Shown piece after piece: positions 5,383 to 63,251 of a stretch of DNA of 64,000 nt. Each line of letters opens with the position of its first letter. Positions within the stretch are counted from its first letter, which is position 1. The notes beneath the pieces are model-generated. The model was not told the origin of the DNA, ran no database searches, and worked only from the letters and a program-made list of their open reading frames with translations. Both the position numbers and the translations under genes were made by a program. The stretch covers positions 1,967,225 to 2,031,224 of the forward strand of contig JADKHR010000001.1 in NCBI GenBank assembly GCA_016721625.1, read 5' to 3'. Source of the stretch: Elusimicrobiota bacterium. Its GTDB lineage: Bacteria; Elusimicrobiota; Elusimicrobia; FEN-1173.

Positions 5383-5863
5383 AATAGGGGACGGTGATAA
5401 CTTTATAACTTAAAGAAGTTTTCATCCAACCGTCTTTCTTCTCGAAGAATGGCTTTTGATAACGTCGGTGGAAAAAGGAGAGAATTTGTTGGATTTCCGT
5501 GGCGGGGAATCCCATTTTTTCCCTTCCGACAAATACAACCAAATCCCTTCCACTGCGAGAATCGTCCGGGCTCAATGCTTCGGACGATGACGTCGTATAA
5601 CCCTCCAGGAACACGGAGACGTGGCTGGCGCGGCATTTTGGAAATAATAGAAATTCGTGTCTCTTTAGCCGCTTGGTTCATCCGATGACGCATGCATTTT
5701 GTAGTGGCCCCATGGAGGGGGCCACCTTTTTCCAGGACAAGGTCTTCTGACGGAAAATCGCCCGATAAATCGGGCCACTACAAAAATCGCTTCAGAGCGC
5801 TAAACTGACACAGAAATTCAATGGAGGGGGCCACTAAGTTATTAAATTATCACCGTCCTATTT
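5383..5863. mobile_element. MITE-like non-coding element bounded by ~28-bp imperfect terminal inverted repeats
   Basis: Left end aataggggacggtgataactttataactt (5383-5411) is the near reverse complement of right end aagttattaaattatcaccgtcctattt (5836-5863), sharing a 10-bp identical core ACGGTGATAA; internal 10-bp inverted pair gtagtggccc (5701-5710) / gggccactac (5772-5781) and 14-bp direct repeat atggagggggccac (5712-5725, 5821-5834); no protein-like ORF inside. Confidence 0.35.
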
Positions 5864-6185
5864 CTCTGCAACCGGCCATATGGTAGTATGTACCATGGTG
5901 GTTTGTGCGTTTTAAAACGGCCGGTTATTTTATCGCCCGGGACGTTTGATTTTTTTATTTGCACACCAACTGGGACGTTATCGGCGTGTGGGCTTGGTTA
6001 TGGAAAGTCAGGCGGCGCGGTTTGGCCGGCGTTACCGACAGGAATGGCCAGGTTTCAATTGGCTTCATTCTTAACATTTTTCCTTAAGAGCGAGTCATTG
6101 TGTTGCATGTAAGGAAACCGACAGGACAAAATTGTTTCATTGCTTTTTCTTCCTTTTGGGGTTATGCTCAATGAGGGGGTCATAA

Positions 6186-7910
6186 ATGCATACGTTATCG
6201 AATCGCTTTCGAGGTTCTTTTTGGAGGGGTATCGGGGTGTTGGGCGGGGGTATTCTGCTCGCTTTCCCGGTGCGGGCCGATTTATTTGAAACGATTGATT
6301 TTACCGGAACGGGCGCCGGGTATGACATGACCGCGGCTTCTTTTTCCTTCTTAAGCCTTCATGGCGCGGTTCAAGCGGGCGATATAAACGGAGACCAGTT
6401 AGCCGACGTCGTTATTCTGGCCGACGGCCGTGTCCAGGCGAACGATTTTCAAACCCCAGGGGGATGGATTCCTCCGACCCATTACCTGTACAATCCAATT
6501 AATCTCGCCGTCGCTGGCTCAAGTTCGCCCAACGTTTTGGCTGGGATTGTGGGAGCTCCCAACTCCACCTTTATCCAATATACCGGAGGGGACCTGGCCT
6601 GGTACCAAAACAATGGAAACGGGTATTTCGAACCTTGTTTTGTTAACCTCAACACCGGCAATCCCCCCGAAATTTACAACGGAAAAAATCTTCAAGTGGC
6701 GGATTTGGATGGCGACTCAGACAACGATATCGTTGTTTGGGCCAGTATGGAAACAACACAACCGACTTCGCTCTCGGCGCCGGGCGAGTGGCTTGGTTTG
6801 AAAGCATTCCTTTGACGACCAATAAAATACAGTTCAAACAATTCAATGCTGTTGATCCATGGAACACCCCAGGGCATTTTTCAGTGGGCTTAACTAGTTA
6901 CAGTGTCGATGATACGCAGGCGGGAACCTTGGTTAACATGAACTTGGACGGTAAATTAGACTTAGCCGTTTTGGCTCATGGCGGTGCCATTTTCGGGGAA
7001 TCAGGGCTATACGTTTTTAAAAACAATGGAGCCGGACCGGGTTTGTTCAGCCAAACAGTTGGGAATGTGGCTCCCGTCATAGTGGCCGGCGCCCCTATCG
7101 CGATCGGTTCGGCATTGTTATTTCGTCCGCCGACATCGATGGCGACACCTTTCCGGATCTGGTCATTGGCGAGGATGGCCCAACCGGCGGCAATGACCAG
7201 GAATTGTTTTACTTAAAGAATCCCAGCGGGGACATTTTTAGCGGCTTACCTTTCACCAAGGTCGTGGTCCATAACCAGTTCCCCGTCTTCCGCGCGGTGA
7301 CCGTCTCCGATGTGATTCCAGGCGGGTGCCAAGAGATCATCGCCGGGGGAAATCAGACCGGCTCGCCGATTTCCATTTTTTCCGGCAGTCTTCAGGGTGG
7401 CGCGAATTGCGTTAACTGGACCCAGACCCCGCTGGCCGGAGCGAACACCTTGGGCAATATACTCGACATCCGCGTGGCCGATTTCAATAACGACGGTTTG
7501 TTGGATATCGTTGCTTTTTCGGAGAGCGCTCCGAACCCCCTCCCCACTTTGCCGGCGGGAAAAAGCACGGTGACGACCCTCTGGCTGAACTCCGGATCGC
7601 TTCCCACGAACCCGATCACGGCCTGGAGATCCATCCCCTTGGTCGAAAACGGCGCTCTTCCGGCCATGAATATCACCCGGGGGGATTGGCTGTTAGTGAT
7701 TTTGACGGAGATGGGGATATGGATGTGGTGCGGTCCCACATTGAAACCAACCTCGCCTATTTCGAAAACAACTGGAACACGGAACGCCATGTGAAAGTCA
7801 TGACCACCATCGAGAAGAAGGGGTTCGTTCAGCGAGTGGTCTCCTTTCTGTACACTTTGCCGGACCGATCCGTGGGGCGGATCCTTGGGCAAGACGTGGG
7901 TGCCCCTTGA
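6186..7910 (+). pseudogene. FG-GAP/VCBS repeat beta-propeller protein with signal peptide, interrupted by at least three frame changes
   Basis: Four consecutive ORFs (6186-6815, 6737-7216, 7204-7794, 7686-7910) in frames 0,2,1,0 each carry FG-GAP-type motifs (DINGDQLADVVI, DLDGDSDNDIVV, NMNLDGKLDLAV, ADFNNDGLLDIV, SDFDGDGDMDVV); N-terminal signal peptide MHTLSNRFRGSFWRGIGVLGGGILLAFPVRA. Confidence 0.6.
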
Positions 7911-8601
7911 AAATCCTAAACGGGAAGGGCCGCCCCCGCGGCTTTACGCTCATTGAGATGGTGGTGGCTATTTCGTTGGTTTCCATTCTTGGCCTTTTTA
8001 TTTTCAAGATGATGCGGAATTTTGTCGATGGGTTAGGCGGGGTCCAGAGATCGATCCCTTTGCAAAGGGATCTGCAAATCGCCAAATACGTCATCGAAAA
8101 AGATCTTCTCTCGGCCCGCGCCATTCCATTGGAAACGCCGTCCCCAATTGCGGTTTTGAGGAAACGCCGACAGCGATGTCAACGACTTTGCCTCCTCCCC
8201 CGGGGGGATGGACGTGCGTCCCGTACCCGCCGACGATTTCAAACTCTCAATTTTCTTACCGAATAGGGTATATCAGCGGCCGTCCGGTCTCGGTGTTGAA
8301 TGGACATTACGGGCTGATCGTCTCTTTGGATGACAACAGGCAATTTGCCGCGCAATCGGCGACGTTTTCGTTGGTGGGCCAGAATATCTACCTGTTCGGG
8401 GTGGGGATCCGGACTTATAAATCAAATATCGGTCGGGGAGCGGACTCGGTGCTTCTAGGCGATCCCGTTCCCTGGCCTCCTCTTCTTTCCTCCGCACTGG
8501 CCATCACGCTCGCTTCTCCCCGCAAACATGGGTTTATCTTGTTTCCTCCTTTACGGCTGTTGGAACTTATAATTATCGGGTTGAAGCCGGAGCGTCCCTG
8601 A
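7907..8601 (+). CDS. prepilin-type N-terminal cleavage/methylation domain protein (type IV pilin-like pseudopilin), frame-shifted
   Basis: TTG start overlapping stop of FG-GAP gene; N-terminus MKILNGKGRPRGFTLIEMVVAISLVSIL has the canonical G/FTLIE prepilin motif followed by a hydrophobic helix; reading continues in another frame (8176-8601) with protein-like composition; C-terminal extent uncertain. Confidence 0.55.
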
Positions 8602-9061
8602 CGGATTCCTTTTACCCTCGACGCCGCGCATGACGACATTGTGGTGACGCCCCTCTCGTTGGACCTAACGACGACCAATGGGGTGACTTTCGAGTTCGAT
8701 CGATTTGAGGTGAGCGGCGCCACCAGTCGACGCGTACGGATACGATATCGTTTGGCGCCTCATGGAAATAGCGGGCAGTTGATCCGGGAACGGAGGCTGG
8801 TGCCCGGCAGCCCTTGGTCATCCCAAGGGTCGCTCAACAATATCCGGCGGCTTTGGGTGGGATGGGATTTTGGCCAGCCCAGGCCTGGGATCCTACCCAG
8901 CCCTCTCCCTTTCGGATTTTTCCAGAAAGGCATGAATTTTCCGCTCGTCATCTTTTTGGAATCGGGAGAGGTGGGGCCCCGCTCGGCGGATCGGTCGCGT
9001 CTCCGTCAACCACCCGGAACGCCCTCGAGTTGGTGTTTTCCGTTTTCCGGAGGCGCCTTAA

Positions 9062-9527
9062 ATGCGGTCCCGGGCCACTTCCAAGGGGCGTTCGTTCTCG
9101 CAAAGCGGTTTCACCTTTGGCGGAGATTGTGGTTTCCGTGATCATTCTGGTGCCGGTGATGATCCTTATCCTGTCCGTCTTCACGACGTCCATTCGCTCG
9201 GTGACGGATTCCTGGGACGTCACTCAAGTCCACCGCCGTGGCCCAGCGGTTGATCGACAAAATCCGTTCCATGAGGTGGGATGAAAATTTAAGTTCGGCT
9301 TCCTCCGTTTTGGGCCCGATAGCGGTGAATCGGGTCCTGGGGATTTCGATGACGTGGACGATTGGAATAACTTCAGCTTGCCGGACTCTTTAGCCTCCTC
9401 CGTGCGTTACGGAAGGCACGTGGATGGACTACGTGACCTCAACGCTTCCGGACAAGTGGTGTCATCTACCGCCCCAACGAATTGTAAAAGGGTGACTGTC
9501 CGGGTCACCAATGTGGTAGGAAAGTGA
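9062..9527 (+). pseudogene. second pilin-like pseudopilin, multiply frame-shifted
   Basis: ATG 9062 gives MRSRATSKGRSFSQSGFTF; adjacent frame continues AEIVVSVIILVPVMILILSVF (prepilin-like G-FT-x-x-E plus hydrophobic helix); downstream frames read ...GDFDDVDDWNNFSLPDSLASSVRYG...VTVRVTNVVGK to stop near 9525-9527. Confidence 0.4.
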
Positions 9528-10442
9528 CAGTCCTTTCCGTTCTCATCGTGAATACTTAGGATTGGCCATGAAAAAATCGATCCCTCAAGCATCAAAAAAA
9601 GCCGGGGCGGCGATCTTAATGATCGTGTTCTTGCTTTTAATCCTGTTGCCCTAACCATGATCCTCGTCAAATGGAGCGCCCTTCACCTGCGAGGAAGCAA
9701 CCGGGGCCGTATTCACATGGACGAATATTATTCCGGAATCACCGCTACCAACGCGGCACTCCTTAGTGCCAATAGCTGGACCTGGGATAATACACTACCC
9801 CAAACCAACAGCCAAGTTTTTTTGGGTAGCGGAACGGTGATTTCTGTGCAAATAACCCATGTCGGGACCCCCTAATCGGTACCCATTATCCGGGTTAACC
9901 CGAAAGGTGCAGTTGGTTCGCGGGAGTTGAAATTTGAGATGCGGTTCCTGTCGCGTCCCACCCATCGGGAACCAGTGCAATCTGCGTCGCCTATGGCGGT
10001 CGTTTTACTGTAAAATTGTCGACATGCGTAACAGATCGCTGTCGTTTCGAAAAAGGCGGGCCTTCCTGTCCGGCTCCCTTGAGTTTTCCGAACCTTTTAA
10101 ATCCAGAACCTATGGGCCCCTCTAAGAGGGTTCGTCCGTCTGATTCGAAGGCGGCGGGCCCCGCCGCTGATCGAATCCATTTTGTCGAGGCGGGGGGAGT
10201 GGCCGGCGTGCGGAAGACCTGCGAGGTTCGGCTGGACGACCTGCCTCCGGCGGCCCGGCGCGGGGTGCGGCACGCTTTTGCCTCATCCAGGGGGCGGGGC
10301 CTGGGCCGGGACCTGAAAACATGCCGTCTCTCTCCACCGCGGAGGCGAGGGATCCGGGACGTCCTTTTGGACGAAGCCTCGGTGCCTCTGGCCGCCCGGC
10401 CCTTGGTGAGATACCTTTCCCAACGCGCTTCCCCGGCTCGGC

Positions 10443-20117: not shown

Positions 20118-21576
20118 ATGCTTTTCAATTCTTGGGAATTCCTTTTTTTCTTTCCTACGGTGACCGCTTTGTATTTCATCCTGCCCCATCGCTCTCGCTG
20201 GTTCCTGCTTTTGTTGGCGAGTTGTTATTTTTATATGTCTTTTATCCCGATATACATATTGATCCTTGGAGTGACGATCCTGGTGGACTATTACGCCGGC
20301 CAATTTATTGAAATGTCGTCGGGCCGAAAAAAGAAATATTTTCTTGCCGGCAGTATTGTCGCCAATGTGGGTTTCCTGGCTTTTTTCAAGTACTTCATTT
20401 TTCTTAATGACAATATGGCGTTGATAGCAAAGGCGATCCATTGGAATTACCCTATCCCTTCTTTAAATATCATTCTTCCCATCGGGTTATCATTCCATAC
20501 TTTTCAAGCCATGAGTTACACGATTGAAATCTATCGGGGCCGTCAAAAGGCGGAGAAGCACTTCGGCCTATTTGCTTTGTACGTGATGTTTTATCCGCAG
20601 TTGGTGGCCGGACCCATCGAACGTCCTCAAAATTTAATACATCAGTTTTCCGAGGAGCATGAATTTGAATACGGGAGAGTGTCCGACGGATTAAAATTAA
20701 TGGCGTGGGGTTTTTAAAAGGTCGTTGTGGCGGACAGGTTGGCGCTCCTCGTCAATCAAGTCTATGACAATCCCACGCGGTACACGGGTTTACCGTTGAT
20801 CATCGCCACCGTCTTTTTTTCCTTCCAAATCTATTGTGATTTTTCCGGATACTCCGATATCGCCATTGGATCGGCTCAAATCATGGGATTCAAATTAATG
20901 AAAAACTTTAACAGGCCGTATTTTTCGAAATCAATTGCCGAATTTTGGAAAAGATGGCATATTTCTTTGTCTTCGTGGTTCAGAGACTATTTTTATATTC
21001 CACTTGGGGGAAGCAGGGTTTCAAAAGGGAGATGGCAGTTTAATCTGCTCCTCACATTCTTGATAAGCGGGCTGTGGCATGGAGCCCATTGGACTTACGT
21101 TGCCTGGGGAGGCCTGAACGGGCTTTATTTCATTTTTTCAATTTGGACGGAAGGGATCCGGAAAAGAATCACTGTATTTGCGAACCTCCATAAGTTTCCC
21201 ATGGTTCAACAATGCGGGCAAATCGTTATAACTTATTCACTTATTTGTTTTTCTTGGATTTTTTTTCGAGCCAAAAATCTAAAAGAATCTTTCTATATTA
21301 TAAGTCATCTTTTTAAAGGGTCGAATCTATTTTTAAATTCAAAGCCGTCATCTCCGGCATCGGTGGGTTAGGATTCGGAAAGAAGGATTATTTAGCTGCC
21401 ATCGTTTCCATGGTCTTTTTAGAAACCGTGGAATACGTTCAACGAAAGGAAAGCCTTAGGCCATGGATTTCAAAACAACCCGCCTATGTGAGATGGGGAT
21501 TATATTATTTACTGGTTTTTTGGATTTGTTCATTCGGGGTTTTTAGGAAATCGCAATTTATCTATTTTCAATTCTA
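20118..21576 (+). CDS. MBOAT-family membrane O-acyltransferase (AlgI/DltB-like), interrupted by an in-frame TAA and a frame change
   Basis: MBOAT signatures SFHTFQAMSYTIEIYRG, FWKRWHISLSSWFRDYFYIPLGGSR, WHGAHW; same-frame ORFs 20118-20717 and 20727-21371 separated by TAA at 20715-20717 (…LKLMAWGF*KVVVADRLA…); C-terminus continues in another frame to ~21576. Confidence 0.75.
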
Positions 21577-21581
21577 AAACC

Positions 21582-22712
21582 ATGAAAAGAAATGTCGGGG
21601 CATTGTTAATTAAAATATTCATTTTGTCGGTTCCCATCGCCCTCCTCTTCTTCATCATGTGTTGGGCGATGTGGACTTCTGGCGAATTGATGTCGGTGAA
21701 GGATATCCTCAGAAATGAAACACCGGCGACTTTGTTCGGATTGGCATACTCGGACCCTAAAGAACGCTACAAATTAAATAAGCTGATAAAGAAAAACCCC
21801 GTGATCATCGCGCTGGGATCCTCCCGGGTTATGCAGTTTCGGGAGATCTTCTTCAAGCCGAGTTTTTATAATGCCGGGGGGTGTGCGGGGCGAATAAAAA
21901 ACTTTTCACAGTTTATGGCACATCTTCCAAACGAAATGAAATGCACGACGATGATCGTGGGTTTAGACCAAAACTTTTTCAATCCGAATTGGGACGACTT
22001 CGGACCAGATCACTTTTTGGATTTGCTGGAAAAGGAGAGATCCCGAGGGCCGCTCCTGGTTTCATCTTTTCAAAAGTTTTGGTTTGATTTTATGACCAAA
22101 GGGATTTCTCTCTCAAAAATAGCGAACAACAGGTGGAGCGAGGCCATTGGCTTGAACGCCATTGTTCAAAGCAACGGTTTCCAGGACGACGGCGGATATC
22201 AGAGGGGGCCACCGGCGAATAATTTAATAAGGGAGATCCCGAATTTTGCCGCGGAGCCAGGATCGGATGCTATTTTGAAAGAAGGAAGTCGATTAGCGGC
22301 GTTTAAAGGCATAAATGTTAACGCGATAAATGAACTCGATCGTTTTTTAGCGGCATGCAAAATGCGAAACATTCATGTCATTGCTTTTTTCCCTCCCTTT
22401 CCGGAAGATGTGTATGACAAATTGCTGGAACTAAAACCGGATTTTACCGGTTTTTTCCAATTGCCTAAACTCGTATCCCCGCATTTAAAAACGTTTGGAT
22501 TTGAGTTTTATGATTTCACAAATCCCAGAACGTTGGGAGCCCAAAACATGGAGTTTTGCGACAGTATTCATGGTTCCGACACGGTGTATTTGAGAATCGT
22601 TATTGGTATGGCCTTGAGGGGATCTTCCATAAACCAGAGCATCGATTTAAATTCCCTTGCCAAAATGCTTAACGATTCAAAAGGTGGAAAATCGGTATTC
22701 CCTTTAAAATAA
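21582..22712 (+). CDS. DltD/AlgJ-like SGNH-type acyltransferase partner of MBOAT, membrane-anchored
   Basis: 376-aa ORF with N-terminal signal anchor (…ILSVPIALLFFIMCWAMW…), GSS-containing segment …VIIALGSSRVMQF… and …CDSIHGSDTVYL…; directly downstream of MBOAT gene. Confidence 0.5.
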   Translation: MKRNVGALLIKIFILSVPIALLFFIMCWAMWTSGELMSVKDILRNETPATLFGLAYSDPKERYKLNKLIKKNPVIIALGSSRVMQFREIFFKPSFYNAGGCAGRIKNFSQFMAHLPNEMKCTTMIVGLDQNFFNPNWDDFGPDHFLDLLEKERSRGPLLVSSFQKFWFDFMTKGISLSKIANNRWSEAIGLNAIVQSNGFQDDGGYQRGPPANNLIREIPNFAAEPGSDAILKEGSRLAAFKGINVNAINELDRFLAACKMRNIHVIAFFPPFPEDVYDKLLELKPDFTGFFQLPKLVSPHLKTFGFEFYDFTNPRTLGAQNMEFCDSIHGSDTVYLRIVIGMALRGSSINQSIDLNSLAKMLNDSKGGKSVFPLK

Positions 22713-26550: not shown

Positions 26551-28053
26551 ATGGCCGGCATGGAAGTTGAAAAGAAGTTAATAACGAACTCGTTTTTCTA
26601 TGTTTTGCCGAAATTTGCCGGAATCGGCATTAACATAATGACGCTACCGATATTAACGAGGATTTTGAGCCCCCAGGATTTCGGGGCCGTGGCCATGGCC
26701 ACGGTGTTTTCAACCTTTGCCGTGGGGATTTTTTCATGGGGTTTGCCGATCGCGGTCCAGCGGTATTTTTTCGAATACCGAAGAGACCCCGTTCGGCTGG
26801 GTCGATATCTTTTCACGTGCCAATTTTTTCTGCACTTGGTCCTGCTCGTTTCTTCCGCGCCCATCTATATTTTCAGGAACGCCTTTTCAACGTTGTTCAT
26901 AGGAAACCCAGGGTACGGAAACGCATTTTTTACGTTTTACGTATCGACTTTTTTCTTCTTCATCCTCAACGTGTACTTAACGACGTTACAGAACTTTGAA
27001 AATGCGAAAGTCCATTCGTTTTTCACGATATTCCATGCCGTTGTTTTAGGCGGTCTCAATGTGACGTTAAGTTTTTCGTTTAAAGATTACACCGGCTTGA
27101 TGTACGCTTCAATCGCAAGTTCTTTTGGGGTCTCCGCCCTATGCACGTTATATTTTTTTAAATATTTTCGAAACGTTTTAAGTTTTGAAATGCTCAAAGA
27201 AAGTCTGGTTTACGGGGCCCAAAACATTCCGAAATCATTCACCGGTTTCATAGGGAGGTTTTTTGACAAGTACCTGATCAACAAAGTCCTCACGTTGCAG
27301 GCCGTGGGTGTTTATAACATCGGGCAGTCGCTTGGGAATTCATCGATTTCTTTATTAAACACCATATGGTCCTCTTTTCAACCCTTGTGTTATCGACAGG
27401 TGTTTGATCAGGGACCGAAGGCGAGCCGGCCCGTTGGACGATTGTTCTCCTATTTTCTCTTCGCCACCGCGAGCCCGTTGCTTCTTGTTCTATTGTTTTC
27501 TTCCGAAATCGTCCGTCTCCTGGCTCCCCCGGCCTACCAGCCCGCGGTGGACGTGATTATGATTTTTCTTTGCGCCATGTCGACGAACATATTTGGAATG
27601 TACGTAGGGGTTCAGTATGCCTACGCGAAAAAGCCGCTGTATATTGTTCTCGCCACAACGATGGGAACATTGGTCAATGTCGGCATGAATTTGTTGTTGA
27701 TTCCACGCTGGGGTTTGGTGGGGGCTTCTTTGGGGGCGTTGGTTTCCTACGCGACCATCAACGGACTGCTGACCGTTATTGGTCAGTCTCTTTATCGAAT
27801 ACATTACGAATGGGGGTTTGTGGCGTGCGTCTATGGAATCATCGGGCTCAGCACCTTGGCAGGCCTTCTAATGCGCGCCACGCAAATATCCTATGGCGTT
27901 CAACTCTGCCTTAAGATTTGCTTATTTGGTGCCTTGATCTTCGCGGGTTCCCGTTGGAAGGTCGCGACGATGGATACGGCACGAAAGATCGTCCGGTTGT
28001 TAAAACCTCAAAAGGGGCTCAGTCCGGAATTTCGCCCCGTCTCGCCTCATTAG
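26551..28053 (+). CDS. Wzx-type oligosaccharide flippase (polysaccharide biosynthesis protein, MOP superfamily)
   Basis: 500-aa very hydrophobic multi-pass membrane protein typical of Wzx/polysaccharide transporter family. Confidence 0.7.
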   Translation: MAGMEVEKKLITNSFFYVLPKFAGIGINIMTLPILTRILSPQDFGAVAMATVFSTFAVGIFSWGLPIAVQRYFFEYRRDPVRLGRYLFTCQFFLHLVLLVSSAPIYIFRNAFSTLFIGNPGYGNAFFTFYVSTFFFFILNVYLTTLQNFENAKVHSFFTIFHAVVLGGLNVTLSFSFKDYTGLMYASIASSFGVSALCTLYFFKYFRNVLSFEMLKESLVYGAQNIPKSFTGFIGRFFDKYLINKVLTLQAVGVYNIGQSLGNSSISLLNTIWSSFQPLCYRQVFDQGPKASRPVGRLFSYFLFATASPLLLVLLFSSEIVRLLAPPAYQPAVDVIMIFLCAMSTNIFGMYVGVQYAYAKKPLYIVLATTMGTLVNVGMNLLLIPRWGLVGASLGALVSYATINGLLTVIGQSLYRIHYEWGFVACVYGIIGLSTLAGLLMRATQISYGVQLCLKICLFGALIFAGSRWKVATMDTARKIVRLLKPQKGLSPEFRPVSPH

Positions 28054-28073
28054 ATGGAATAGGGAGAATCCCA

Positions 28074-29077
28074 TTGGGTCGTCAAAAATTTCAATTTCCG
28101 CTCCTCATCGCAGAGGTTGCCAATTCACACGGGGGTTCTCGTCCGTATCTTTTCCAACTGACCAAGAGGCTGCTGGCTACGAGCGTCCCTGCCGTTAAAT
28201 TTCAATGCATCGTGGCGGATGATTTTTTGACCCCCGCTCACCCCCAATACGAGCTATTCAAGTCCTTTGAATTTCCGCCGACCGTATTTTCCACGCTGGT
28301 GCGGCTCATCCATGGGGCAAGGAAAAAGGCGTATTTTGACGTTTTCGGCGACATCTCGTTGGCGGCGGCGGATCGGGTCGGCGCCGACGGTTTTAAAATC
28401 TATGCCAGCGACATCGGCAATAATCCTTTCATTGAAAAGGTCCTCTCGATCGGAAAGCCGGTCTTGATCTCAGTGGGGGAGCGACGCTGAGCGAAATCGA
28501 CGAGATTGTTAAAATATGTTCGGGAAAACAGTTCTGTCTCTTGGTGGGGTTTCAAGCGTTCCCTACTCCGATCGAGGAATCCAACGTGGGGAAAATTAAA
28601 TTCCTAAGAGAACGATACGGTTGTTCCGTCGGATACATGGATCATTCTCCGGCCATTGACCCTTTCTCGGAATTTGTCCCTTGTTTGGCGGTTGGGCAAG
28701 GGGCCTGTTGCATCGAAAAACACGCGTATCTTAAAGCCAGGAAGACCTTGTATGATTGGCAATCGGCGTTCGACCCCTCCCAGTTTGAAACGCTCGCTCA
28801 CCGCCTTAAGAAGGCTCAGTCCGCGTTGGGGACAACGTTCTTTCCCCTTTCTTCTTCTGAACAGGCTTACTCCCGCTCAAAGCGGAAAATCATTGTCGCG
28901 GCCGATCCGATCGACCAAGGAGTTCGGATCCTCCCCAAGAACATCATGGGCCGATGCGCCCATCTTTCTTCGAGGACCTCGTTTTTCACACTCAACCAGT
29001 CCGGCCACGTGGTCGGTCGAGTGGCTCGAAAAAATATCCAACGGTTCGAGGTGATCTCGCCGGACATTTTAAGATGA
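28074..29077 (+). CDS. NeuB-family nonulosonate/ulosonate synthase paralog 1 (one frame change)
   Basis: TTG 28074 after AGGGAGA RBS; N-terminal ...PLLIAEVANSHGGS...AVKFQ...; continues after a frame change at ~28470 (ISVG / GGATLSEIDEIVKICSGKQFCLLVGFQAFPTP...MDHS...IEKH...). Confidence 0.7.
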
Positions 29078-29811: not shown

Positions 29812-29823
29812 TGGGGGAGCCTG

Positions 29824-30881
29824 ATGGGTGGAATTCGGTTCCAACACGGCGCCGCTATCGGCGACGGGGTTCACTGTTTCATCATGCTCGACGCGGGGGT
29901 CAATCACAACAACGATGTCGGGCGAGCCAAAGAACTTATTCGATCCGCCAAGGCCGGAGGCGCGGACGCTATTAAATTCCAGACCTACAGTGCGGAGGAG
30001 ATCAGCACGAAAAAAGCCGCTCGGTATTGGGATCCGAAACTGGACACGGACGGGGGGGGGACCCAATTCGAAATGTTCGCGCGGGTGGATGACTTGCCGA
30101 AAAAGCGTATTTTGGACTCAAAGAGTATGCCCAGGAACAAGGGATCCTTTTTTCTTCATCCCCTTTCGGCATGGACAGCGCCCGATTTTTGAAGAAACTG
30201 GGGGTCGATTTCTTTAAGATCGCCTCAGCGGAGATTACAAACTTGCACCTGATTGAATTCATCGCCGACTGCGGAAAGCCGATTGTTCTGTCGACGGGGG
30301 CGGCCTCCATTGGGGAAGTGGAGAAAGCCATTGACGTCATTCACCGGACAGGCCTTCGAGAGATCGCGCTTCAGCATTGCGTGCTGAGTTATCCGTGCAA
30401 GGATGATGACGCGAATCTGGCCAAAATGGTCCGGTTGAAGCAGATTTTTCCGGACATCCCCATCGGGTATTCCGACCATACCTTTGGGGCGGAAGTGCCG
30501 TTGGCTGCGGTGGCGTTGGGGGCGCGTTCGATTGAAAAGCATTACACCTTGGACAGCCGTCTCCCCGACAGTCCCGATCATAAATTCGCCCTGACGAGCG
30601 ACGAACTGGGGGATTTCGTAAAACGTTGTCGGAGGGTGGAAAAATCAATCGGCACCTACCGGAGCGGACATTACGCGGCGGAGGAGAAAGCCTATCAACT
30701 CGCACGCAAGAGCCTGGTGGCCGTCCGTCGAATTAAGAAGGGCGAAAGGATCACGGATCGAGCCGTTTCCTGCAAGCGGCCCGGGACCGGCATTTACCCC
30801 GAGTTTTTGGGGGTCATCGTGGGGAGAACGGCCAAAAAAAACATCGAACCGGACGAGCTACTCTCGTGGGACATGTTTTAG
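29824..30881 (+). CDS. NeuB-family nonulosonate/ulosonate synthase paralog 2 (one frame change)
   Basis: N-terminal ...CFIMLDAGVNHNNDVGRAKELIRSAKAGGADAIKFQTY...; frame change at ~30101 (A5 run; one more A gives ...LPKKAYFGLKEYAQEQGILFFSSPFGMDS...); middle ...GKPIVLSTGAASIGEVEKAIDVI...GYSDHT...IEKHYTLD... Confidence 0.7.
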
Positions 30882-42793: not shown

Positions 42794-44321
42794 AGCCTTC
42801 CCCGCCTCCTTTGGCGGTTCGAGCGGATGCTGGGCCCGCCATGGGGACTGGGCATATGATGCGTTGTATCGCGCTGGGGCAGGCTTGGCGCGCTTTGGGA
42901 GGCCGGGTCGTTTTTCTAACGGCGAACAGCCTTCCCTCTCTTTTGTCTCGAATACCTGGAGGGATTTCGTCATTCCCCTTTTGACGGTTCGAGCCGGCGG
43001 CCGGTCGGACGCTGTCAAAACGGCGGACGCGGCGCGGAGGTTCGGGGCTCGCTGGGTCGTGGTCGATGGATATCATTTCGGGCCCGGCTATCGAGAGATT
43101 TTGCAAAAAAGCGGATTTCGCGTTTTGTGGGTTGACGATCTCGGCAGTTCCGAGAATTGTTTTTCAGACATTGTTGTGAATCAAAACCTTCACGCCAAGC
43201 CGAACCTTTATCCTCGCCGTGAGGCCCGCCCCCGGTTGATGTTAGGGTCCCGCTACGCGTTGTTGCGAAACGAGTTCTCCGCTTTCCAGCGGCGATCCGC
43301 TCGGCATTCAACAGTGAAACGAATATTGGTTTCGGGCGGGGGAACCGATCCTAAAAACATAACGAGAACCGTTCTGAAGGCCTTGGCGAATGTTCCGGCT
43401 CCTCGGTTTGAGATCGACGTCCTTCTTGGCGGAGGGTATCGTAAGGCGTGGTCCCTCGCCGGATGGGCACGCCGGGCGGGTGTTCATCGGGTTCACGTTC
43501 ACAAAAACCCAAGAAATATCGCTTTTCTGATGTCTCGTGCCGACCTGGGAATCCTGGCGGCCGGATCCACTTGTTTGGAAATCGCTCGATTGGGGCTTCC
43601 GGCTATTCTCGTGGCCCAATCTGACAACCAAACCAACATCGCCCATTCAATGCATCAAGAGGGTGCCGCCTGGAGCCTGGGGTCCATCGCTTCCTTGTCG
43701 GTAGGGGAAATCCGGGATCGAGTCGAATGGTTGGCGCGATCGCCATCGGTTCGTAAACGAATGTCTCTAAGAGGAAAACGGCTCGTTGATGGAAAAGGGG
43801 CCAAGCGCGTGGTGGCCATGATGCAGGACATGGCTTCGCCAAGGGTTCCCTTTGTTCTTCGACGCGTCCGTCCCTCCGACTGTCGAAGGTTGTGGAATTG
43901 GGCGAACGACCCGGCCGCCCGCGCGGCAAGTTTTTCTGAAACCCGTATTCCATGGGGGCCCCACCAGGCCTGGTTTAAGGAACGACTTAATAATTCCCAT
44001 TGTGTTATTTTCGTTGCCGTTCTTCGACAGGGGAAATCCATTGGAAGTGCGCGTTTTGAACGCCGAAAGATCGGTTGGGTGATTTCCGTTTTTGTCGAGA
44101 GGACCTATCGTGGGCAAGGGCTTGGATCCAGTCTCATCCGAACGGCGGCATGCGCGTTCATGAGGGACACCGGAGAAAAGGTTGTGAACGCTTATGTGAA
44201 GCCCACCAACGGCGCTTCTCTCCAAGCTTTCCTTCGAGCGGGGTTTCGTCAAAGGGCGAAAACGCGCATTTCAAACACTCCGGCCTATTGGTGTGTGTTA
44301 ACCACGGAAGATTGTCAATGA
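42784..44321 (+). CDS. pseG: bifunctional PseG-like UDP-sugar hydrolase / PseH-like GNAT acetyltransferase (one frame change)
   Basis: N-terminus ...LAVRADAGPAMGTGHMMRCIALGQAW... (PseG-like) in frame 1, continuing after a frame change at ~42950 in frame 0 (...WVVVDGYHFGPGYREILQKSGFRVLWVDDL...); C-terminal GNAT domain ...FVERTYRGQGLGSSLIRTAACAF... Confidence 0.65.
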
Positions 44322-45417
44322 ACGAACCCACAGCGATCCGCGATCGGAACGTTGGAGACGGGAACCCGGTCTACATCGTGGCGGAGATGTCGGCGAATCA
44401 CGGGGGGGACTATTCCAGGGCTGTGAGAATACTGCAGGAGGCCAAGACCGCCGGGGCTGACGCGGTCAAACTTCAGACCTACACGGCCGATACCCTCACG
44501 ATAAAATCCGAGCAGGACTGTTTTCGAATCGGCCATGGTTCTTTGTGGGAAGGAAAGCGGCTTTACGACCTCTATCAGGAGGCGTACACCCCTTGGGAGT
44601 GGCATCCGAAGCTGAAGGAAGTGGCCCGACGCTTGGGTTTGGATCTTTTCTCCTCGCCCTTTGACGCCACCGCCGTGGAATTTTTGGAAACAATGGATGT
44701 TCCTTGTTATAAGATTTCGTCATTCGAGATCATCGATATCCCGTTGATCCGGCGCGTGGCGCGAACCGGAAAGCCCATGATCCTGTCAACGGGAATGGCC
44801 ACCCGGGAGGAAATTGACGAAGCGGTGCGCGAAGCCCGCACCCACGGAGCCCGTGGGATCGTTCTTCTTAGTGTCAGCGCCTATCCGGCGCCGGCAGAGG
44901 AAATGAATCTTCGCGCCATTCCGCGCCTCTCCCATGATTTCGGCTTTCCGGTGGGATTATCGGACCATACGCTTGGATCGGCCGCCCCCGTGGCCGCCGT
45001 TGCGTTGGGGGCCTGTCTCATGAAAAACACTTTACGCTTTCCCGTTCGTTTGCCGGTCCGGATAGTTCGTTTTCAATGGAACCCACGGAGTTCAAGGCCA
45101 TGGTGGAAGCTGTTCGTGGAACGGAGAAAGCTCTCGGAAAATCTGATTACGTTTTGGGGGAGAAAGAGAAGGCGAGTCGCGCTCTCCGGCGCTCTCTGTT
45201 TGTGGTCCAAGAGATGGCGTCGGGCGACGTTTTCACCGAGACCAACGTCCGTTCCATTCGGCCGGCGAACGGGTTGCCTCCCCGTCATTACGCGGAGGTG
45301 TTGGGCCGCCGCTCGACGCGTGGGATACAACGCGGGACGCCGTTGACGTGGGACCTTGTGGAAAAAATAGGGGATGGAATGATCAAAGATACGGGGAAAT
45401 CCAGGAGCGAAAAATGA
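44318..45417 (+). CDS. pseI: pseudaminic acid synthase-like NeuB-family enzyme (PseI-like), one frame change
   Basis: ...VYIVAEMSANHGGDYSRAVRILQEAKTAGADAVKLQTY...GKPMILSTGMAT...GLSDHTLG...; frame change at ~45032 (ctcatgaaaaacac); then ...EKHFTLSRSFAGPDSSFSMEPTEFKAMVEAVRGTEKALG... with SAF-like C-terminus. Confidence 0.75.
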
Positions 45418-49475: not shown

Positions 49476-51360
49476 GTGTGCGGGATAGTGGGTCTTTATA
49501 GTCGAGAACAGGGCACCGCCTGTTTCCTTACTTGGGAAAATGGCGGATGCTTTGGCTCACCGGGGACCGGATGGGGGCGGCGCTTGGGTTTCGCCCGACG
49601 GTCGGGTGGGGTTGGCCATGCGGCGGTTGGCGATCATTGATGTGGCGGGGGGGCGACAGCCGATCTTCAATGAAGATGGGACGGTGGGGATTGTTTTTAA
49701 CGGGGAGATTTATAATTTCGAGGTTTTGCGGAAAGAGTTGGAGGCCAAGGGGCACCGGTTTAAAACCCATTCGGACACGGAAACCATTGTCCATCTGTAT
49801 GAGGAAGAAGGCGTGGAGTGCGTTCGGCGGCTTCGGGGGATGTTCGCTTTTTCCTTGTGGGACGAGAAACGCCAGCGGTTGTTTTTAGCTCGGGACCGGT
49901 TCGGGAAAAAGCCGCTCTTCTACATGGAACGGGGCGGCCGGCTGGCGTGGGCGTCTGAACTTCAGGCGCTTAAAAAGTTCCCGGACTTTGATCCGGAAAT
50001 GCACCCCGAGGCGCTGGATCTGTTTTTAAGTTTTCAGTATATCCCCAGCCCGTTCACCATCTACAAAAATGTTCGGAAACTTCCCCCGGCCCACCGTTTG
50101 ATCGTGGAGAAAGGCGCGGTGCGGGTGGAACGGTATTGGGACCTTCCGGTTAACCAACCGCCCTTATCGATCGGGTTGGAAGAGGCCAAGTTCGAGATCC
50201 GCCGACGATTGACCGAGGCGGTCAAAATGCGACTGATCTCCGAGGTTCCTTTGGGCGCGTTTCTTTCGGGCGGTATCGATTCCTCCGTCATCGTGGGGCT
50301 CATGAGCGAATTGTCGGACCAGCCCGTTAAAACCTTTTCCATTGGGTTCGACCATGAGGAATTTTCCGAACTCCCCTTCGCCAAGGAGGTGGCCCGGCGG
50401 TTCGGGACCGACCACACGGAGTTCGTGGTCAAGCCCGAGATGGCGGAAGTGCTTCCCCTTCTGGCCCGCCATTACGGCGAGCCTTTCGCGGACCCCTCCG
50501 CCCTGCCGACCTATTACGTGGCGCGGGAGACCCGGCGGCACGTCACCGTGGCCTTGAACGGCGACGGGGGGGACGAGAACTTCGCGGGATACCTTCGGCA
50601 CGTGGCGGCCCTGGGGGCCCACAGGGCGCGGGCCGTTCCCGGAGCGGTTTGGAAAGCGGGGGCCAAAACGCTTTCCCTACTCGGAGATCGCGGGGGTTCC
50701 AAGGGGTGGGTGTGGCGGGTTCGGCGCTTGATGGAGAGCGTGGGGGAATCGGACCCCGCGGCGCGCCATCTCGGGTTTTCTTGTTTTTTCCCGGACCCGC
50801 TCAAACGCGCGCTCTATACGGAAGCCTTCGCTTCCCGGGTTGCCGAGGGACGGGCGTTGCGCTATATTCGACAAGCCTTCGACCGGGCGCCCAGCGCCGA
50901 TGTCATCAACCGGACGCTCTACACGGATTTTTCGACCTATTTGCCGGAATGTTTGATGACGAAAGTCGACATCGCCTCCATGGCGGTTTCTTTGGAGGGA
51001 CGGTCGCCGCTCCTGGACCACGATTTCGCGGAGTTCGTGTTCCGACTGCCCGGCCGGTGGAAATTAAAGGGATGGTCCCAGACCAAATGGATTTTCAAAG
51101 AAACCTTCAAGGATCTCCTTCCCCCGTCGATCTTGAAGCGGAAAAAAATGGGGTTTGGGATTCCTTTGGGACCCTGGTTTCGGGGGCCGCTCCGTCCGAT
51201 GTTTCAGGAGACCGTGCTTTCTCCCGAGGCGCTCCAGCGGGGCTATTTCCGGCCCGAGGTTCTTCAGGGATTATGGGACGAGCACCAATCGGGCCGACGG
51301 GACCACGGGTATCGCCTGTGGGCTCTCCTCATGCTGGAAATGTGGCAACGCCATGGGTGA
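49476..51360 (+). CDS. asnB: asparagine synthetase (glutamine-hydrolysing), N-terminal frame change
   Basis: GTG-TGC at 49476 gives (M)CGIVGLYSREQG... with catalytic Cys2; frame changes by +1 near 49500 into ORF 49540-51360 (...MADALAHRGPDG...NGEIYN...); PP-loop ...LSGGIDSSVIVGLM... Confidence 0.8.
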
Positions 51361-52438
51361 ACCTTTGACCCTGGCGGCGGAGGCGTGGGATCGGACGACG
51401 GCCACGGCCGTTAAGCACCATGTGTTTCAAACCGCGGGTTGGTCCGAGGTTAAAGCCCCGTCGGGCTGGCGGGCGCACCGTCTTTGTGTGGAACGGGACG
51501 GCGTTTTCCGGGTGGGGCTCCAGGTTTTGGAGCGGGATTTTCCAAAAATTCGGTACCGTTTTTTTTACGCGCCCCGGGGCCCGGTTCTCTCGGAGGGATG
51601 GACGGCGGAGGATTTGGCGGAACTGTTCCGTCGAGTGGAAAAGCTGGCGCGGGAACGTAAAGCGGTTTTTCTTAAGATCGATCCCGATGTCTCAAAAACG
51701 ATGGACTGGATTTCGGGGCCTCTTTTGCAAAACGGGTTTCGGCGGGCGCCGGAGACGGGCGGGTTTTCGGGGGTTCAGCCTCGGCTGGTGTTTCGCTTGG
51801 ATATTTCGAAGAGCGAAGAGGATCTTCTGAAGGGGATGGATCAGAAGACCCGCTACAACATTCGTTTGGCGGAAAAGAAGGGCGTGACCATCCGCCCGGT
51901 CGCTTCCCGCGAAGAGATTGAAACCTTCTACCGCATCCTCGTCGATACGGCCCGCCGGGACGGATTTTTGATTCGGCCGGCGGGGTATTTTTTGGACATT
52001 CAAAAGCGGTTGGGCGCGCAGGGGAAGGCTCAATTTTTCCTGGCCGAGCGCGAGGGGAAACCGATTTCCGGGGCCCTGGCGCTCACCCATGGGAAAACAA
52101 CCTGGTATGCTTACGGCGCCAGCGCCAACACCGACCGTCAATACATGCCCAACCATCTGATGCAATGGACCATGATCCGCTGGGCGAAATCCAACGCCTG
52201 CACGCTCTACGATTTCCGCGCCGTGCCGAGCAACCCGAAACCGGAGGATCCGCTGTACGGGTTGTATCGGTTCAAGAAAGGCTTTGGGGCGGAACTGACG
52301 GAGTTTGTGGGGGAATACGACCGCGTGTATGTCCCTTGGCTCTATTTCCTGTGGGTTCATGGGTGGCCGATCTTTAAGAAAATCCGGCGGGCGATCCTCC
52401 TTCGTCCGTCCCGTTCGACTCGTCCCGAGGCCGACTGA
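51353..52438 (+). CDS. FemAB-family aminoacyltransferase (peptidoglycan branch formation-like)
   Basis: ATG 51353 overlapping asnB end; ...WYAYGASANTDRQYMPNHLMQWTMIRWAKSNACTLYDFRAV... characteristic of FemAB/FemX family. Confidence 0.65.
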   Translation: MGEPLTLAAEAWDRTTATAVKHHVFQTAGWSEVKAPSGWRAHRLCVERDGVFRVGLQVLERDFPKIRYRFFYAPRGPVLSEGWTAEDLAELFRRVEKLARERKAVFLKIDPDVSKTMDWISGPLLQNGFRRAPETGGFSGVQPRLVFRLDISKSEEDLLKGMDQKTRYNIRLAEKKGVTIRPVASREEIETFYRILVDTARRDGFLIRPAGYFLDIQKRLGAQGKAQFFLAEREGKPISGALALTHGKTTWYAYGASANTDRQYMPNHLMQWTMIRWAKSNACTLYDFRAVPSNPKPEDPLYGLYRFKKGFGAELTEFVGEYDRVYVPWLYFLWVHGWPIFKKIRRAILLRPSRSTRPEAD

Positions 52439-53506
52439 TGTCGTCAATGGACCACGCTCTGCGCTGGGTGGAGGTGAATCTGGCCGCCATCGCCCACAAC
52501 GTGCGGGCGGTGAGGCGGGGAAATCGGGCCGGGCCTTGGCTTCGCCGCGGTCGTCAAGGCCGACGGGTATGGCCACGGAGCGCCGGCGGTGGCCCGGGTA
52601 GCCCTCGCCTCGGGCGCCGACTTGCTGGCCGTGACCGATCTGAACGAGGCCCTGGCCCTTCGCGCCGCTGGGCTCGGCGCTTCGATCCTGATCACCGGGC
52701 CGGTGAATCCCGCGCGGGCGGGCGTGGTGTCCGAAAACAAATTTTCTGTGATGGTGGACAACCCCCGCCTCCTTCGCGCCCTCTCGTCCTTGAACGCTCG
52801 GCGGCCTGTGTCGGTGCAGATCGAGGTCGACCTGGGACTGGGCCGGTGGGGGGTTGGGCTCCAGGATCTCCCAAAATTTTATCGTTTGGTGGAAAAAGCT
52901 CCTGGGGTTCGCTTAGATGGGATCTATGCCCATCCCGGCTATGTGGCCGGGAAAAACGGTCCTTTGATTCGAAAACGGTTGGCCGAGTTTTGCGCCGTGA
53001 CGGATCGGTTGTTCGCCGACGGCCGCGCCGTTCCGCGCCATGTGGCCAATAGTGCTCTCCTTCTGGATTTTCCAAAATACCGATGGGACGGAGTTCGGGT
53101 GGGGAACCTTCTCTACGGCATCCATTCGACTCCGGGGGTTCTCTCGCTCCAAAACCCCTGGCGGCCCTTGTCCAAGATTGTTCGGATCGGGCGCGTTCAG
53201 GCGGGTCAGCGGATCGGGTATGGGAGCGAGTCTATTTTCCCCCGCGCCATGACGGTGGGGACTATTCCCGTGGGCTACGGACACGGGTTGACGTTGGAAC
53301 CGGCGTCGGTCTTGAAGGGGCGCCGGCCCTCCTTCCATTATTGGGGAATGGTTCGCGGGGTTCGGTGCCCGTTCATCGGAAAACCTGGAATGAATCACGT
53401 CTTGGTGGATTTGAGCGGCGTGGCGAAACCCCGGGAGGGGGAAGAGATTCAGATGCCCCTTCGACGAACGGCCGCGGCCCACTGGCCCAAGGTCTATCTC
53501 CGTTAG
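52438..53506 (+). CDS. alr: alanine racemase, N-terminal frame change
   Basis: N-terminus MSSMDHALRWVEVNLAAIAHNVRAVRR... then frame change near 52510 into ...LGFAAVVKADGYGHGAPAVA... (PLP-lysine motif) and ORF 52589-53506. Confidence 0.75.
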
Positions 53507-53516
53507 GCCGTTCTCC

Positions 53517-54632
53517 GTGCAGGTTCTCGCCGCTCCCAACGCTTTCAAAGGATCGCTTTCCGCCCGCGCCGCGGCGCGGGCCCTGGCGAGGGGGGCGCGC
53601 GGGGTCGGCGTTCGCGTGGTTCAGTGTCCTCTGGCCGACGGCGGGGACGGGACGTTGGACGTGCTACGAGACCCTCTCGGCTTGACCCTCCGCCGGACGC
53701 GGGTCCTCGATCCGCTGGGGCGCCCCCTCCTGGCCGCATGGGGATACAATCCGAATTCCCGCCAGGCGGTGGTGGAGATGGCGCGCGCCTCGGGGCTGGC
53801 CCTGTTGTCTCCCCAGGAACACGACCCCATGAAGACCACCAGTTTCGGCACCGGCCAATTGATCGCCGCCGCCCTCCGGGCGGGGGCCCGGAATATTTGG
53901 GTGGGGTTGGGCGGGAGCGCCACCGTCGACGGCGGGTTAGGGATTCTTCAGGCGTTGGGGGCCCTGGTGTGGGTCCGCGCGGCAGGGCGGGTGGTCCCCT
54001 TGGACCGGCCCGCTACGGGAGCCGATTTAATTTCGCTTTGCGAGGTGGGCGTCGCGAAGACGCGCGGTGTGCGTTTGAGGGTTCTCTGTGATGTGCTCAA
54101 TCCCCTCTTGGGCTCGCGTGGGGCGGCCCGCGCTTTCGGGCCTCAAAAGGGGGCTTCTCCGTCAGGGATTCGCCGACTGGAAGGCGGGCTCAAAATCCTC
54201 CAGCGCCTGGCTCGGGCCCAGGGGCGACCGGTGTCTCCCTTGGTGGGTGCCGGCGCGGCGGGGGGCGCCGCGGCCGGATTGTTCGGCTTTGCCGGGGCCC
54301 CATGCGTCAGCGGCGTCGGCGCCATTTTTCGCCTCCTGGGTTTGGAGGAAAAGGTTAAACAGGCGGATTTAGTCTTGACCGGCGAAGGCCGGGTGGACCG
54401 GACCTCCTGGGAAGGGAAGGCCCTCGGGGAATTGGCTCGACTCTGTGGGCGATGGGGTAAACCGCTTTTTGTTTTGGCGGGCGAAACGGGTCCCGGCTAT
54501 CGGAGGCGGGGGGCGCCGGTGTTTCTCATCGGGTCCGCCGGCATGGGGAAGGAGGAAAAGATCCGTCGTGCCGCTTCGCTGGTTCAAGGGACGGCGGACC
54601 GAATCCTGAAAAAATGGAGAGGGGAAGAATGA
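53517..54632 (+). CDS. glxK: glycerate kinase
   Basis: ...VLAAPNAFKGSLSARAAARAL...CPLADGGDGT... N-terminal signature of glycerate kinase family. Confidence 0.75.
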   Translation: MQVLAAPNAFKGSLSARAAARALARGARGVGVRVVQCPLADGGDGTLDVLRDPLGLTLRRTRVLDPLGRPLLAAWGYNPNSRQAVVEMARASGLALLSPQEHDPMKTTSFGTGQLIAAALRAGARNIWVGLGGSATVDGGLGILQALGALVWVRAAGRVVPLDRPATGADLISLCEVGVAKTRGVRLRVLCDVLNPLLGSRGAARAFGPQKGASPSGIRRLEGGLKILQRLARAQGRPVSPLVGAGAAGGAAAGLFGFAGAPCVSGVGAIFRLLGLEEKVKQADLVLTGEGRVDRTSWEGKALGELARLCGRWGKPLFVLAGETGPGYRRRGAPVFLIGSAGMGKEEKIRRAASLVQGTADRILKKWRGEE

Positions 54633-55591
54633 AAAACCGAGTGCTCGTCACGCGTCGGATCCCTCCGGAGGGTCTGGCGGTTCTCCAGGACCATGGGTTC
54701 GCGGTGGAGTTGAACCCCGAGGATCGGCCCATGACCAAGCTCGAAATTATTGGTTCCTTAAACGGCGTCGATGCCCTGCTCACCCAACTGGTGGACCCCG
54801 TGAACCGCGAGGTGATCGAGGCCGGCAAGAGCCTGCGGGTCATTGCGGCCTATGCCGCGGGATACGACAACATCGACGTCCCCGCCGCGGCGGAGCGGGG
54901 CATCGTGGTGACGAACACTCCCCGGGTATTAACGGAGGCCACGGCGGAAATGGCCTGGTCTCTCCTTCTCTCCGCCGCTCGCCGGGTGGCGGAGGGGGAC
55001 CGCTTGACGCGGTCCGGGGGGTTTCGGGGCTGGGCGCCCCTGTTTCATCTCGGGCAAGGAATCACCGGAAAGGTTCTTGGGATCGTGGGGGCGGGGCGTA
55101 TCGGTACGGCGGTGGCGCGGATGTCCCGAGGGTTCCAGATGAAGATCCTCTATTGGGGACGAACCCGGAACGAGGAGATCGAAAAAGAGTTGGCCGGACG
55201 GAAGGTGGAACTGACGGAACTTTTGAAAGAAAGTGATTTCGTTTCGCTTCATGTGCCCCTTAGCGCGGAAACGCGGCACCTGATCGGAAAAAAAGAGTTG
55301 GAACTCATGAAACCCACTTCGGTTTTGGTGAATACCGCCCGGGGCCCGGTGATCGATGAAGCGGCTCTGGTCCTCGCGCTTCGGGCCGGGCGGCCCTTCG
55401 CGGCGGGGCTCGATGTTTACGAGAAGGAGCCGTTGCTCTCCCCGGGATTAGCCGATTTACCGAACGTTGTTCTGGCGCCTCATGCGGGGTCGGCCACCGT
55501 GGAAACGCGGGCCCGCATGGCGGTCTTGGCGGCGGAAAATATTGCGGCGGTCTTGGAGGGGCGGCCGCCCCTCACTCCGGTCGGGGGTTGA
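54629..55591 (+). CDS. D-isomer-specific 2-hydroxyacid dehydrogenase (glyoxylate/hydroxypyruvate reductase-like)
   Basis: ATG 54629 overlaps glxK stop; NAD-binding ...VLGIVGAGRIGTAVARM...; ...VNTARGPVIDEAAL... Confidence 0.8.
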   Translation: MKNRVLVTRRIPPEGLAVLQDHGFAVELNPEDRPMTKLEIIGSLNGVDALLTQLVDPVNREVIEAGKSLRVIAAYAAGYDNIDVPAAAERGIVVTNTPRVLTEATAEMAWSLLLSAARRVAEGDRLTRSGGFRGWAPLFHLGQGITGKVLGIVGAGRIGTAVARMSRGFQMKILYWGRTRNEEIEKELAGRKVELTELLKESDFVSLHVPLSAETRHLIGKKELELMKPTSVLVNTARGPVIDEAALVLALRAGRPFAAGLDVYEKEPLLSPGLADLPNVVLAPHAGSATVETRARMAVLAAENIAAVLEGRPPLTPVGG

Positions 55592-55600
55592 CCGGGATCG

Positions 55601-57811: not shown

Positions 57812-57939
57812 GGGACCCCATCCTACGTTTTTGGGGAGCCCCCTTCAATAGTTTATCGACGGAATAACGGCCCACTTCATCCTTGCGAAGCCAGCCCTGG
57901 GATGCTAAAATCGCCTCTATTATCCGTCCTTTTTATTTT

Positions 57940-58011
57940 TCCCCGGTAGCTCAATGGTGGAGCGGTCGGCTGTTAACCGACAGGATGTTGGTTCGAGTCC
58001 AACCCGGGGAG
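57940..58011 (+). tRNA. tRNA-Asn (anticodon GTT)
   Basis: Cloverleaf folded by hand: acceptor TCCCCGG/CCGGGGA, D-arm GCTC/GAGC, anticodon stem GTCGG/CCGAC with loop CTGTTAA (anticodon GTT), T-arm GTTGG/TTCGAGT/CCAAC; CCA not encoded. Confidence 0.85.
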
Positions 58012-58019
58012 CTTTTGGT

Positions 58020-58078: not shown

Positions 58079-58142
58079 GTTCAATCCGGTCGATGGGGAC
58101 ATCCATGAAAAATGATCGGCGGGGAAGAAGGGGCGTCTTTTT

Positions 58143-63224: not shown

Positions 63225-63251
63225 CGCGTTTCTTTAAAGAAGATCTTTTCG

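Follow-up and report, generated by a model that had tools for sequence, protein, structure and literature searches.

The known systems nearest to the locus studied here are the glycan O-acylation modules DltB–DltD, AlgI–AlgJ/X and PatA–PatB, each of which couples an MBOAT O-acyltransferase to an SGNH-type partner, and MBOAT–SGNH pairs of this kind act together in acyl transfer. The window (the whole stretch of 64,000 nucleotides of Elusimicrobia DNA that we analysed) carries on its plus strand a gene for an AlgI/DltB-type MBOAT O-acyltransferase (20118–21577) and, immediately downstream, an intact gene for an N-terminally anchored SGNH-fold, DltD-like protein of 376 aa (21582–22712). Like the described modules, the locus combines an MBOAT domain, histidines that align with those of DltB and a length of ~487 aa with an adjacent membrane-anchored SGNH partner. 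By analogy with these systems, the MBOAT protein would carry an acyl group through the membrane, and transfer to the polymer would fall to the SGNH partner; in the cell, the pair would thereby acylate a cell-surface glycan and form an ordinary glycan O-acylation module. Two features set it apart from DltB–DltD: the MBOAT protein falls below the cut-off of the DltB family model TIGR04091, and the partner matches neither the DltD nor the ALGX model of Pfam. No dltA or dltC gene was seen in the window, and the pair falls outside the Dlt system. Because it sits in a nonulosonic-acid and glycan cluster of an Elusimicrobia genome, its substrate is probably a different glycan. Unlike the MBOAT genes of the AlgI, DltB and PatA modules, the gene in the window is interrupted twice as written.

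Repair of both interruptions yields an MBOAT product of 486 aa. This translation scores 97.4 bits against PF03062 (MBOAT, Pfam; gathering cut-off 27), which places it in the superfamily, and 146.8 bits against the NCBIfam equivalog for DltB, TIGR04091 (cut-off 375), which leaves it outside DltB proper. Among 5.8 billion proteins searched, 8000 are homologs at E ≤ 1e-20; thousands of these are full length at ~487 aa, and the best is 69% identical to the repaired product over 100% coverage. Because homologs of ~487 aa align end to end with the repaired product, we regard the MBOAT gene as full length but interrupted twice. Comparison of the family profile with solved structures recovers DltB (6BUG and 8JEM, E = 6e-33), with DltB 6BUG the nearest. 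The histidines of the catalytic funnel are present in their 'RWH' and 'WHG' motifs: H281 (RWHISLS) and H321 (GLWHGA) are invariant in the homolog alignment, match RWHMSLS and FWHG of DltB 6BUG and are both encoded downstream of the first interruption. At 169 columns conserved in at least 95% of homologs, the window protein deviates five times, always conservatively (I/V, V/I, I/V, Y/F and S/A); intact homologs deviate at the same columns 1.8 times on average and 8 times at most, and five falls in the upper tenth of their distribution. Judged from its sequence, the gene is of the ordinary AlgI/DltB type and, outside its two lesions, well preserved. As written, no single uninterrupted open reading frame (ORF) of ~480–500 aa is found, the reading being broken by a stop at 20715–20717 and a frameshift within 21321–21364; the full transmembrane core is absent from every MBOAT fragment, and a working enzyme is impossible from any of them.

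The partner gene starts 5 nt past the MBOAT stop. Its product shares 38% identity over its full length with the protein encoded after an MBOAT ortholog in a Margulisbacteria contig, and the two-gene arrangement recurs, with a more distant version of the partner following another ortholog at a second locus. Searches of the partner sequence against Pfam and the PDB gave no match, and some of its homologs match DUF1574. Fold comparison identified an SGNH-type fold with DltD as the longest and best full-length structural match, and the Ser...Asp-x-x-His triad of this fold is encoded directly beside an MBOAT gene. The protein is 100% identical to MBL0059165.1, deposited as 'MAG: hypothetical protein IPP35_08680 [Elusimicrobia bacterium]'. 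With respect to fold and gene arrangement, the designation DltD-like is valid. The initial annotation, made from the letters of the DNA, had described the interrupted gene as an MBOAT acyltransferase and its downstream DltD-like partner as intact; the former description agrees with the PF03062 score of 97 bits and with DltB 6BUG as the nearest structure, the latter with the 38% end-to-end relative and the SGNH fold.

Both genes lie within an island of 42–50% GC at ~15–28 kb of a window that otherwise has 55–64% GC. The low-GC island opens a ~35-kb glycan-biosynthesis region, which encodes GT4 and GT2 glycosyltransferases, a Wzx-type flippase, DegT- and PseB-like enzymes, cytidylyltransferases and three NeuB paralogs. 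AsnB-like amidotransferases and SPASM and B12-type radical SAM enzymes are encoded in the same region.

The first lesion is a TAA at 20715–20717 that shares its frame (start coordinate mod 3 = 0) with the ORFs on either side of it, 20118–20717 and 20727–21371. The upstream ORF begins with an ATG (MLFNSWEF...) and terminates after 199 aa in this TAA; beyond it, frame 0 continues as ...KVVVADRLA... until a TAG at 21369–21371, and translation across the stop reads ...LKLMAWGF(stop)KVVVADRLA.... We aligned homologs across the lesions, using 21 sequences and then 115, and the column of the stop is Lys in 115/115. The surrounding motif, W-G-[L/M/F]-F-K-K, is present in 116/116 homologs in which it could be located (WGFFKK in 12); compared with each of these, the W-G-F-stop-K of the window lacks one residue. 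Because the motif is one residue short of all homologs, the lesion is read as a 3-nt deletion and not as a point change. The DNA at this site, GGT TTT TAA AAG, forms a T5A4 tract (20711–20719, plus strand) that contains the TAA in frame, and contiguous removal of TTA from GGT TTT TTT AAA AAG (T7A5) reproduces it exactly. From the alignment, a single 3-nt loss at a homopolymer junction would explain both the missing residue and the stop. We infer the T7A5 codons as ancestral, and with them the true tract lengths; homologs carry TTT AAG AAG and TTT AAA AAA at the site and no long tract, and exact patterns spanning the tract, with variable tract length allowed, found no match in genome contigs or metagenome contigs. 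A miscalled boundary, T4A5 read as T5A4, would be the less parsimonious explanation: the protein would still lack a residue that all homologs have.

The second lesion is a 1-nt deletion within 21321–21364 (plus strand), placed with three-frame translations, at which the reading changes from frame 0 to the −1 frame. The C-terminal 86 residues, which end in the family-invariant FIYFQF, are encoded in this other frame, open from 21317 to a TAA at 21575–21577. The interval is bounded by the Gly of 'HLFKG', which is still in frame 0, and by 'GLGF' (from 21365), which is already in the other frame, and one added base restores exactly the spacing between HxxxG and GLGF seen in homologs. T5A3 (21330–21337) and A3 runs dominate the interval. 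The missing base probably lies within the T5A3 run, its exact position being obscured by the poor conservation of the segment. Much of what the initial annotation had said about the interruptions stands: its same-frame ORFs do flank the TAA by coordinates and translation, its claim that the motif is normally continuous is borne out by an unbroken WG[LMF]FKK in homologs, and the frame change it had suspected near the C terminus (~21330–21370) falls in the interval 21321–21364. Its proposal of a nonsense mutation or substitution error does not survive, as three bases are missing where the T and A homopolymers meet; comparison with orthologs thus upholds the continuous motif and replaces simple nonsense with a 3-nt deletion.

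Frame breaks extend well beyond the MBOAT gene. We combined Pfam domain splits, three-frame reading and ortholog-anchored ungapped tblastn, with candidates from per-ORF codon-usage scoring checked by Pfam and orthologs, and counted at least 25 breaks in ~11 of the ~55 genes of the window (~1 in 5). A self-trained codon-usage frame plot proved too noisy for a clean frameshift count. Each of the three NeuB paralogs carries one single-base frameshift, at 28471–28483, 30094–30107 and 45017–45030, respectively. Pfam splits the first between 27915–28487 (profile positions 13–121) and 28436–29074 (120–238) and the third between 44060–45343 (2–198) and 44938–45414 (196–239 and the SAF domain); in the second, positions 1–66 match within 29812–30189, and the rest was recognized by eye in the neighbouring frame at 30093–30881. 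Breakage of 3/3 NeuB (nonulosonic-acid synthase) paralogs is above the prediction of a uniform error rate. The longest homopolymer of the window, a G9 run at 30052–30060, is in frame within the second paralog, ~40 nt upstream of its frameshift. An FG-GAP/VCBS repeat gene (6186–7900) contains at least three frame hops, at 6777–6791, at 7106–7117 and at a G6 run (7675–7689), and the pseudopilin-like ORFs downstream of it (7907–9284) also look fragmented. A gene of ~690 aa is divided between ORFs 14983–16443 and 16463–17068 at a T5 run (16433–16445); it has no Pfam match, and at the run one frame reads ...NFILCF followed by two stops and the next ...FVFDENSSD. The densest damage affects three adjacent genes (11979–14356) that together hold ~15 hops in 2.5 kb: a MarR-like gene with ~6 hops in 465 nt, a thermolysin-type M4 peptidase gene with 5, whose HEXXH motif is split where ACCAC stands in place of the expected ACCCAC (12903–12917), and a gene for a 303-aa protein (p303) with 4.

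Nearly all readable lesions are one-base changes in the length of runs of G, C, T or A (for example G6 to G5, G7 to G6, G4 to G3, G3 to G2, C3 to C2 and, twice, C5 to C4), with a few sites ambiguous or not clearly at a run. The direction of the frame changes points to an excess of missing over extra bases of ~2:1. We found no nonsense substitution among the at least 25 lesions of the window, apparent in-frame stops being the products of paired or triple frame hops. Lesion density is ~6 per kb at 11.9–14.4 kb versus ~0.1 per kb elsewhere in the window. Several short runs of 2–4 nt are affected while some runs of 7–9 nt stay in frame, and other genes hold many long homopolymers (G7, T8 and G9) in frame.

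Relatives of the genome allow error and evolution to be compared. RNase G places the window in Elusimicrobiota and yields syntenic contigs that share the order MreB–MreC–MreD–PBP2–RodA–RNase G–...–MarR-like–M4–.... The window and two of these contigs, L084 and L087, are about equidistant, and we compared the stitched window proteins with their intact orthologs in L084 and L087, against the comparison of L084 with L087. The M4 peptidase is 79.6% and 79.0% identical to its L084 and L087 orthologs, which are 78.3% identical to each other; the corresponding values are 76.6% and 72.9% versus 79.5% for the MarR-like protein and 65.5% and 66.4% versus 68.3% for p303. Control proteins gave 90.9% and 89.5% versus 91.4% (RNase G), 77.5% and 74.7% versus 72.2% (RodA) and 68.7% and 67.8% versus 67.4% (PBP2). 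The stitched products of the MarR-like, M4 and p303 genes match their intact orthologs as closely as these match each other; the three genes carry indels without substitution decay, a pattern unlike that of decaying pseudogenes and like that of an indel-prone consensus. An independent assembly, L089 (GCA_054403255.1), aligns to positions 50890–64000 with 92.2% nucleotide identity and four gaps over 13.1 kb of core genes, and the sole frame-breaking gap reads GGCGGGGAAATC in the window and GGCGGG-AAATC in the relative. The alanine racemase break at 52513–52525 is G4 in the window versus G3 in L089, whose intact gene encodes 355 aa. The racemase ORF of the window begins at Pfam profile position 23 with the N terminus in another frame, and its first usable start codon lies downstream of the PLP-binding Lys. 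What an artefact predicts, namely homopolymer indels in many genes, with no excess of substitutions and with genes expected to be functional among them, is therefore what the window contains. Both comparisons ran on other genes of the window, the MBOAT gene having no close ortholog (best 69%), and because they were feasible only there, the case for an artefact in the MBOAT gene is partly one by association. We dropped an argument against error from homopolymers in intact genes (159 of at least 5 nt in long housekeeping genes), because these genes were chosen for being intact and the test was thus biased.

The relatives also differ from the window in gene content. The relatives place the MarR-like and M4 genes no more than ~1 kb beyond RNase G, with an Emfourin gene intervening in L084; the corresponding stretch of the window (5400–11900) measures ~6.5 kb and holds an Emfourin homolog at ~10109–10435 as well as genes of FG-GAP, pseudopilin-like and PLD-like type. 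A 451-aa gene that follows M4 in L084 is absent from the window. In JGI contigs of related Elusimicrobia (155–753 kb), PBP2, infA and rodA are split (L085, 957–1457; L087, 562–781; L088, 8614–9988), and these splits in long assemblies suggest the same kind of indel error elsewhere in the lineage.

Deposited records point to the origin of the assembly. The intact window proteins MBL0059165.1, MBL0059166.1, MBL0059181.1, MBL0059191.1 and MBL0059199.1 belong to one contig of 2,758,065 bp in a metagenome-assembled genome (MAG); such a length (2.76 Mb) in a MAG implies that it was assembled from long reads. No protein record exists for either MBOAT fragment, which is consistent with annotation as a pseudogene by the depositors. 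Locus tag and accession series presumably point to the Nanopore MAGs that Singleton et al. 2021 obtained from activated sludge. The pipeline of that study used CANU, Racon, medaka twice and Racon with Illumina reads once (PMC8012365). Published descriptions of gene-fragmenting homopolymer indels in long-read (Nanopore) assemblies match the lesions of the window (PMC9262707, PMC12007338).

We consider it most likely that the TAA and the C-terminal frameshift are uncorrected homopolymer-length consensus errors of a long-read metagenome assembly and are not present in the DNA of the organism. This explanation leads because similar homopolymer indels run across the genes of the window and because the DNA comes from a MAG whose contig is 2.76 Mb long. 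Under it, three bases would have been under-called at T7A5 to create the TAA, and one base under-called at the T/A run near 21330 would have caused the C-terminal frameshift; a Nanopore-type platform is what we infer as the cause. The lesions resemble known long-read indel artefacts in that homopolymers change by one to few bases, many genes are hit, missing bases exceed extra ones and substitution decay is lacking. They differ in that their density is very patchy and that runs of 2–4 nt are hit while some of 7–9 nt are in frame, a distribution unlike that of a uniform error process. The artefact reading needs the assumption that short-read polishing was itself patchy, which would account for the uneven density. 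That replication slippage in vivo leaves lesions of this kind likewise counts against an artefact. Slippage underlies the main alternative, namely that the MBOAT gene is a genuine and recent pseudogene, in which a 3-nt loss at T7A5 created the TAA and a 1-nt loss near the 3′ end followed, and this may have been part of a wider loss of surface-glycan decoration that also struck the NeuB paralogs. Such an origin agrees with slipped-strand bacterial pseudogenes in lesion type, homopolymer context and position in an accessory low-GC island, and accessory islands often decay; another gene of the same glycan region is broken together with the three NeuB paralogs, the five deviations at conserved columns exceed the homolog mean of 1.8, and many long homopolymers elsewhere are in frame. 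We nevertheless judge it unlikely. Neighbouring genes with 4–6 hops each show no extra amino-acid divergence and hence no signal of relaxed selection, which neutral decay cannot give; a lesion of this type also affects alanine racemase, an apparently housekeeping gene that a 92%-identical relative keeps whole; not one nonsense substitution was found among the at least 25 lesions; and the source is a MAG with a contig of megabase size.

Explanations in which the lesions serve a function fare worse. Surface-modifying genes are classic targets of homopolymer phase variation, and the first lesion does sit at a homopolymer junction, where frequent changes in the length of the T/A tract might toggle glycan O-acylation. 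We regard such a contingency switch as very improbable, for its tracts are short and mixed (T5A4 and T5A3), repair of the frame needs a 3-nt change over two runs, homologs have no long tract at the site, and genes unrelated to the surface (alanine racemase and the MarR-like gene) carry the same lesions. A contingency locus has one long simple tract that alone toggles the frame; here both lesions must revert, and the independent second frameshift keeps the gene off whatever the state of the first tract. Programmed recoding would instead have the TAA read through or reassigned and a −1 frameshift near 21330 restore the C terminus of a full-length enzyme. The TAA has conserved flanks that share a frame, the C terminus is encoded one base back, and the interval contains a U-rich stretch, CUA UUU UUA AAU; read in frame 0, however, this stretch does not form a canonical X XXY YYZ heptamer, and the initial suggestion of a read-through stop conflicts with the use of TAA as a normal stop, which ends 12/38 confident genes of the window including the MBOAT and partner genes. 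All homologs are continuous through both lesion sites, the position of the stop is Lys in 115/115 of them and the window lacks a residue there, so that no recoding signal is conserved; bypass of the second, independent frameshift would be needed as well, and identical-looking lesions occur in ~10 unrelated genes. Within the window we found no suppressor tRNA, the only tRNA being tRNA-Asn, and no Rfam recoding element. Recoding is accordingly an exceedingly improbable account. We give equally little credence to real lesions across which the enzyme is still made, by read-through of the TAA and a one-base slip back near 21330, as a doubly recoded MBOAT protein; a milder version has the lesions real and marking a strain-specific switch-off of glycan O-acylation.

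As consensus errors, the two lesions matter mainly for quality control: stops, split genes and frameshifts flagged in this genome are to be presumed artefactual until reads say otherwise. Were they real, they would make a routine pseudogene in an accessory island, and they would be of wider interest only if a doubly recoded product were functional, which nothing supports. Taxonomic placement of the window also depended on the choice of marker. An H+/Na+-pyrophosphatase encoded at 60891–63224 is misleading in this role, and it was RNase G that gave Elusimicrobiota and the syntenic relatives. The pyrophosphatase is up to 81% identical to proteins of Chloroflexota and Omnitrophota, with no gene order shared between the window and their loci (L001–L080), and may have been horizontally transferred. 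Among the same loci, PBP1A lies beside the pyrophosphatase only in the Elusimicrobium locus L048.
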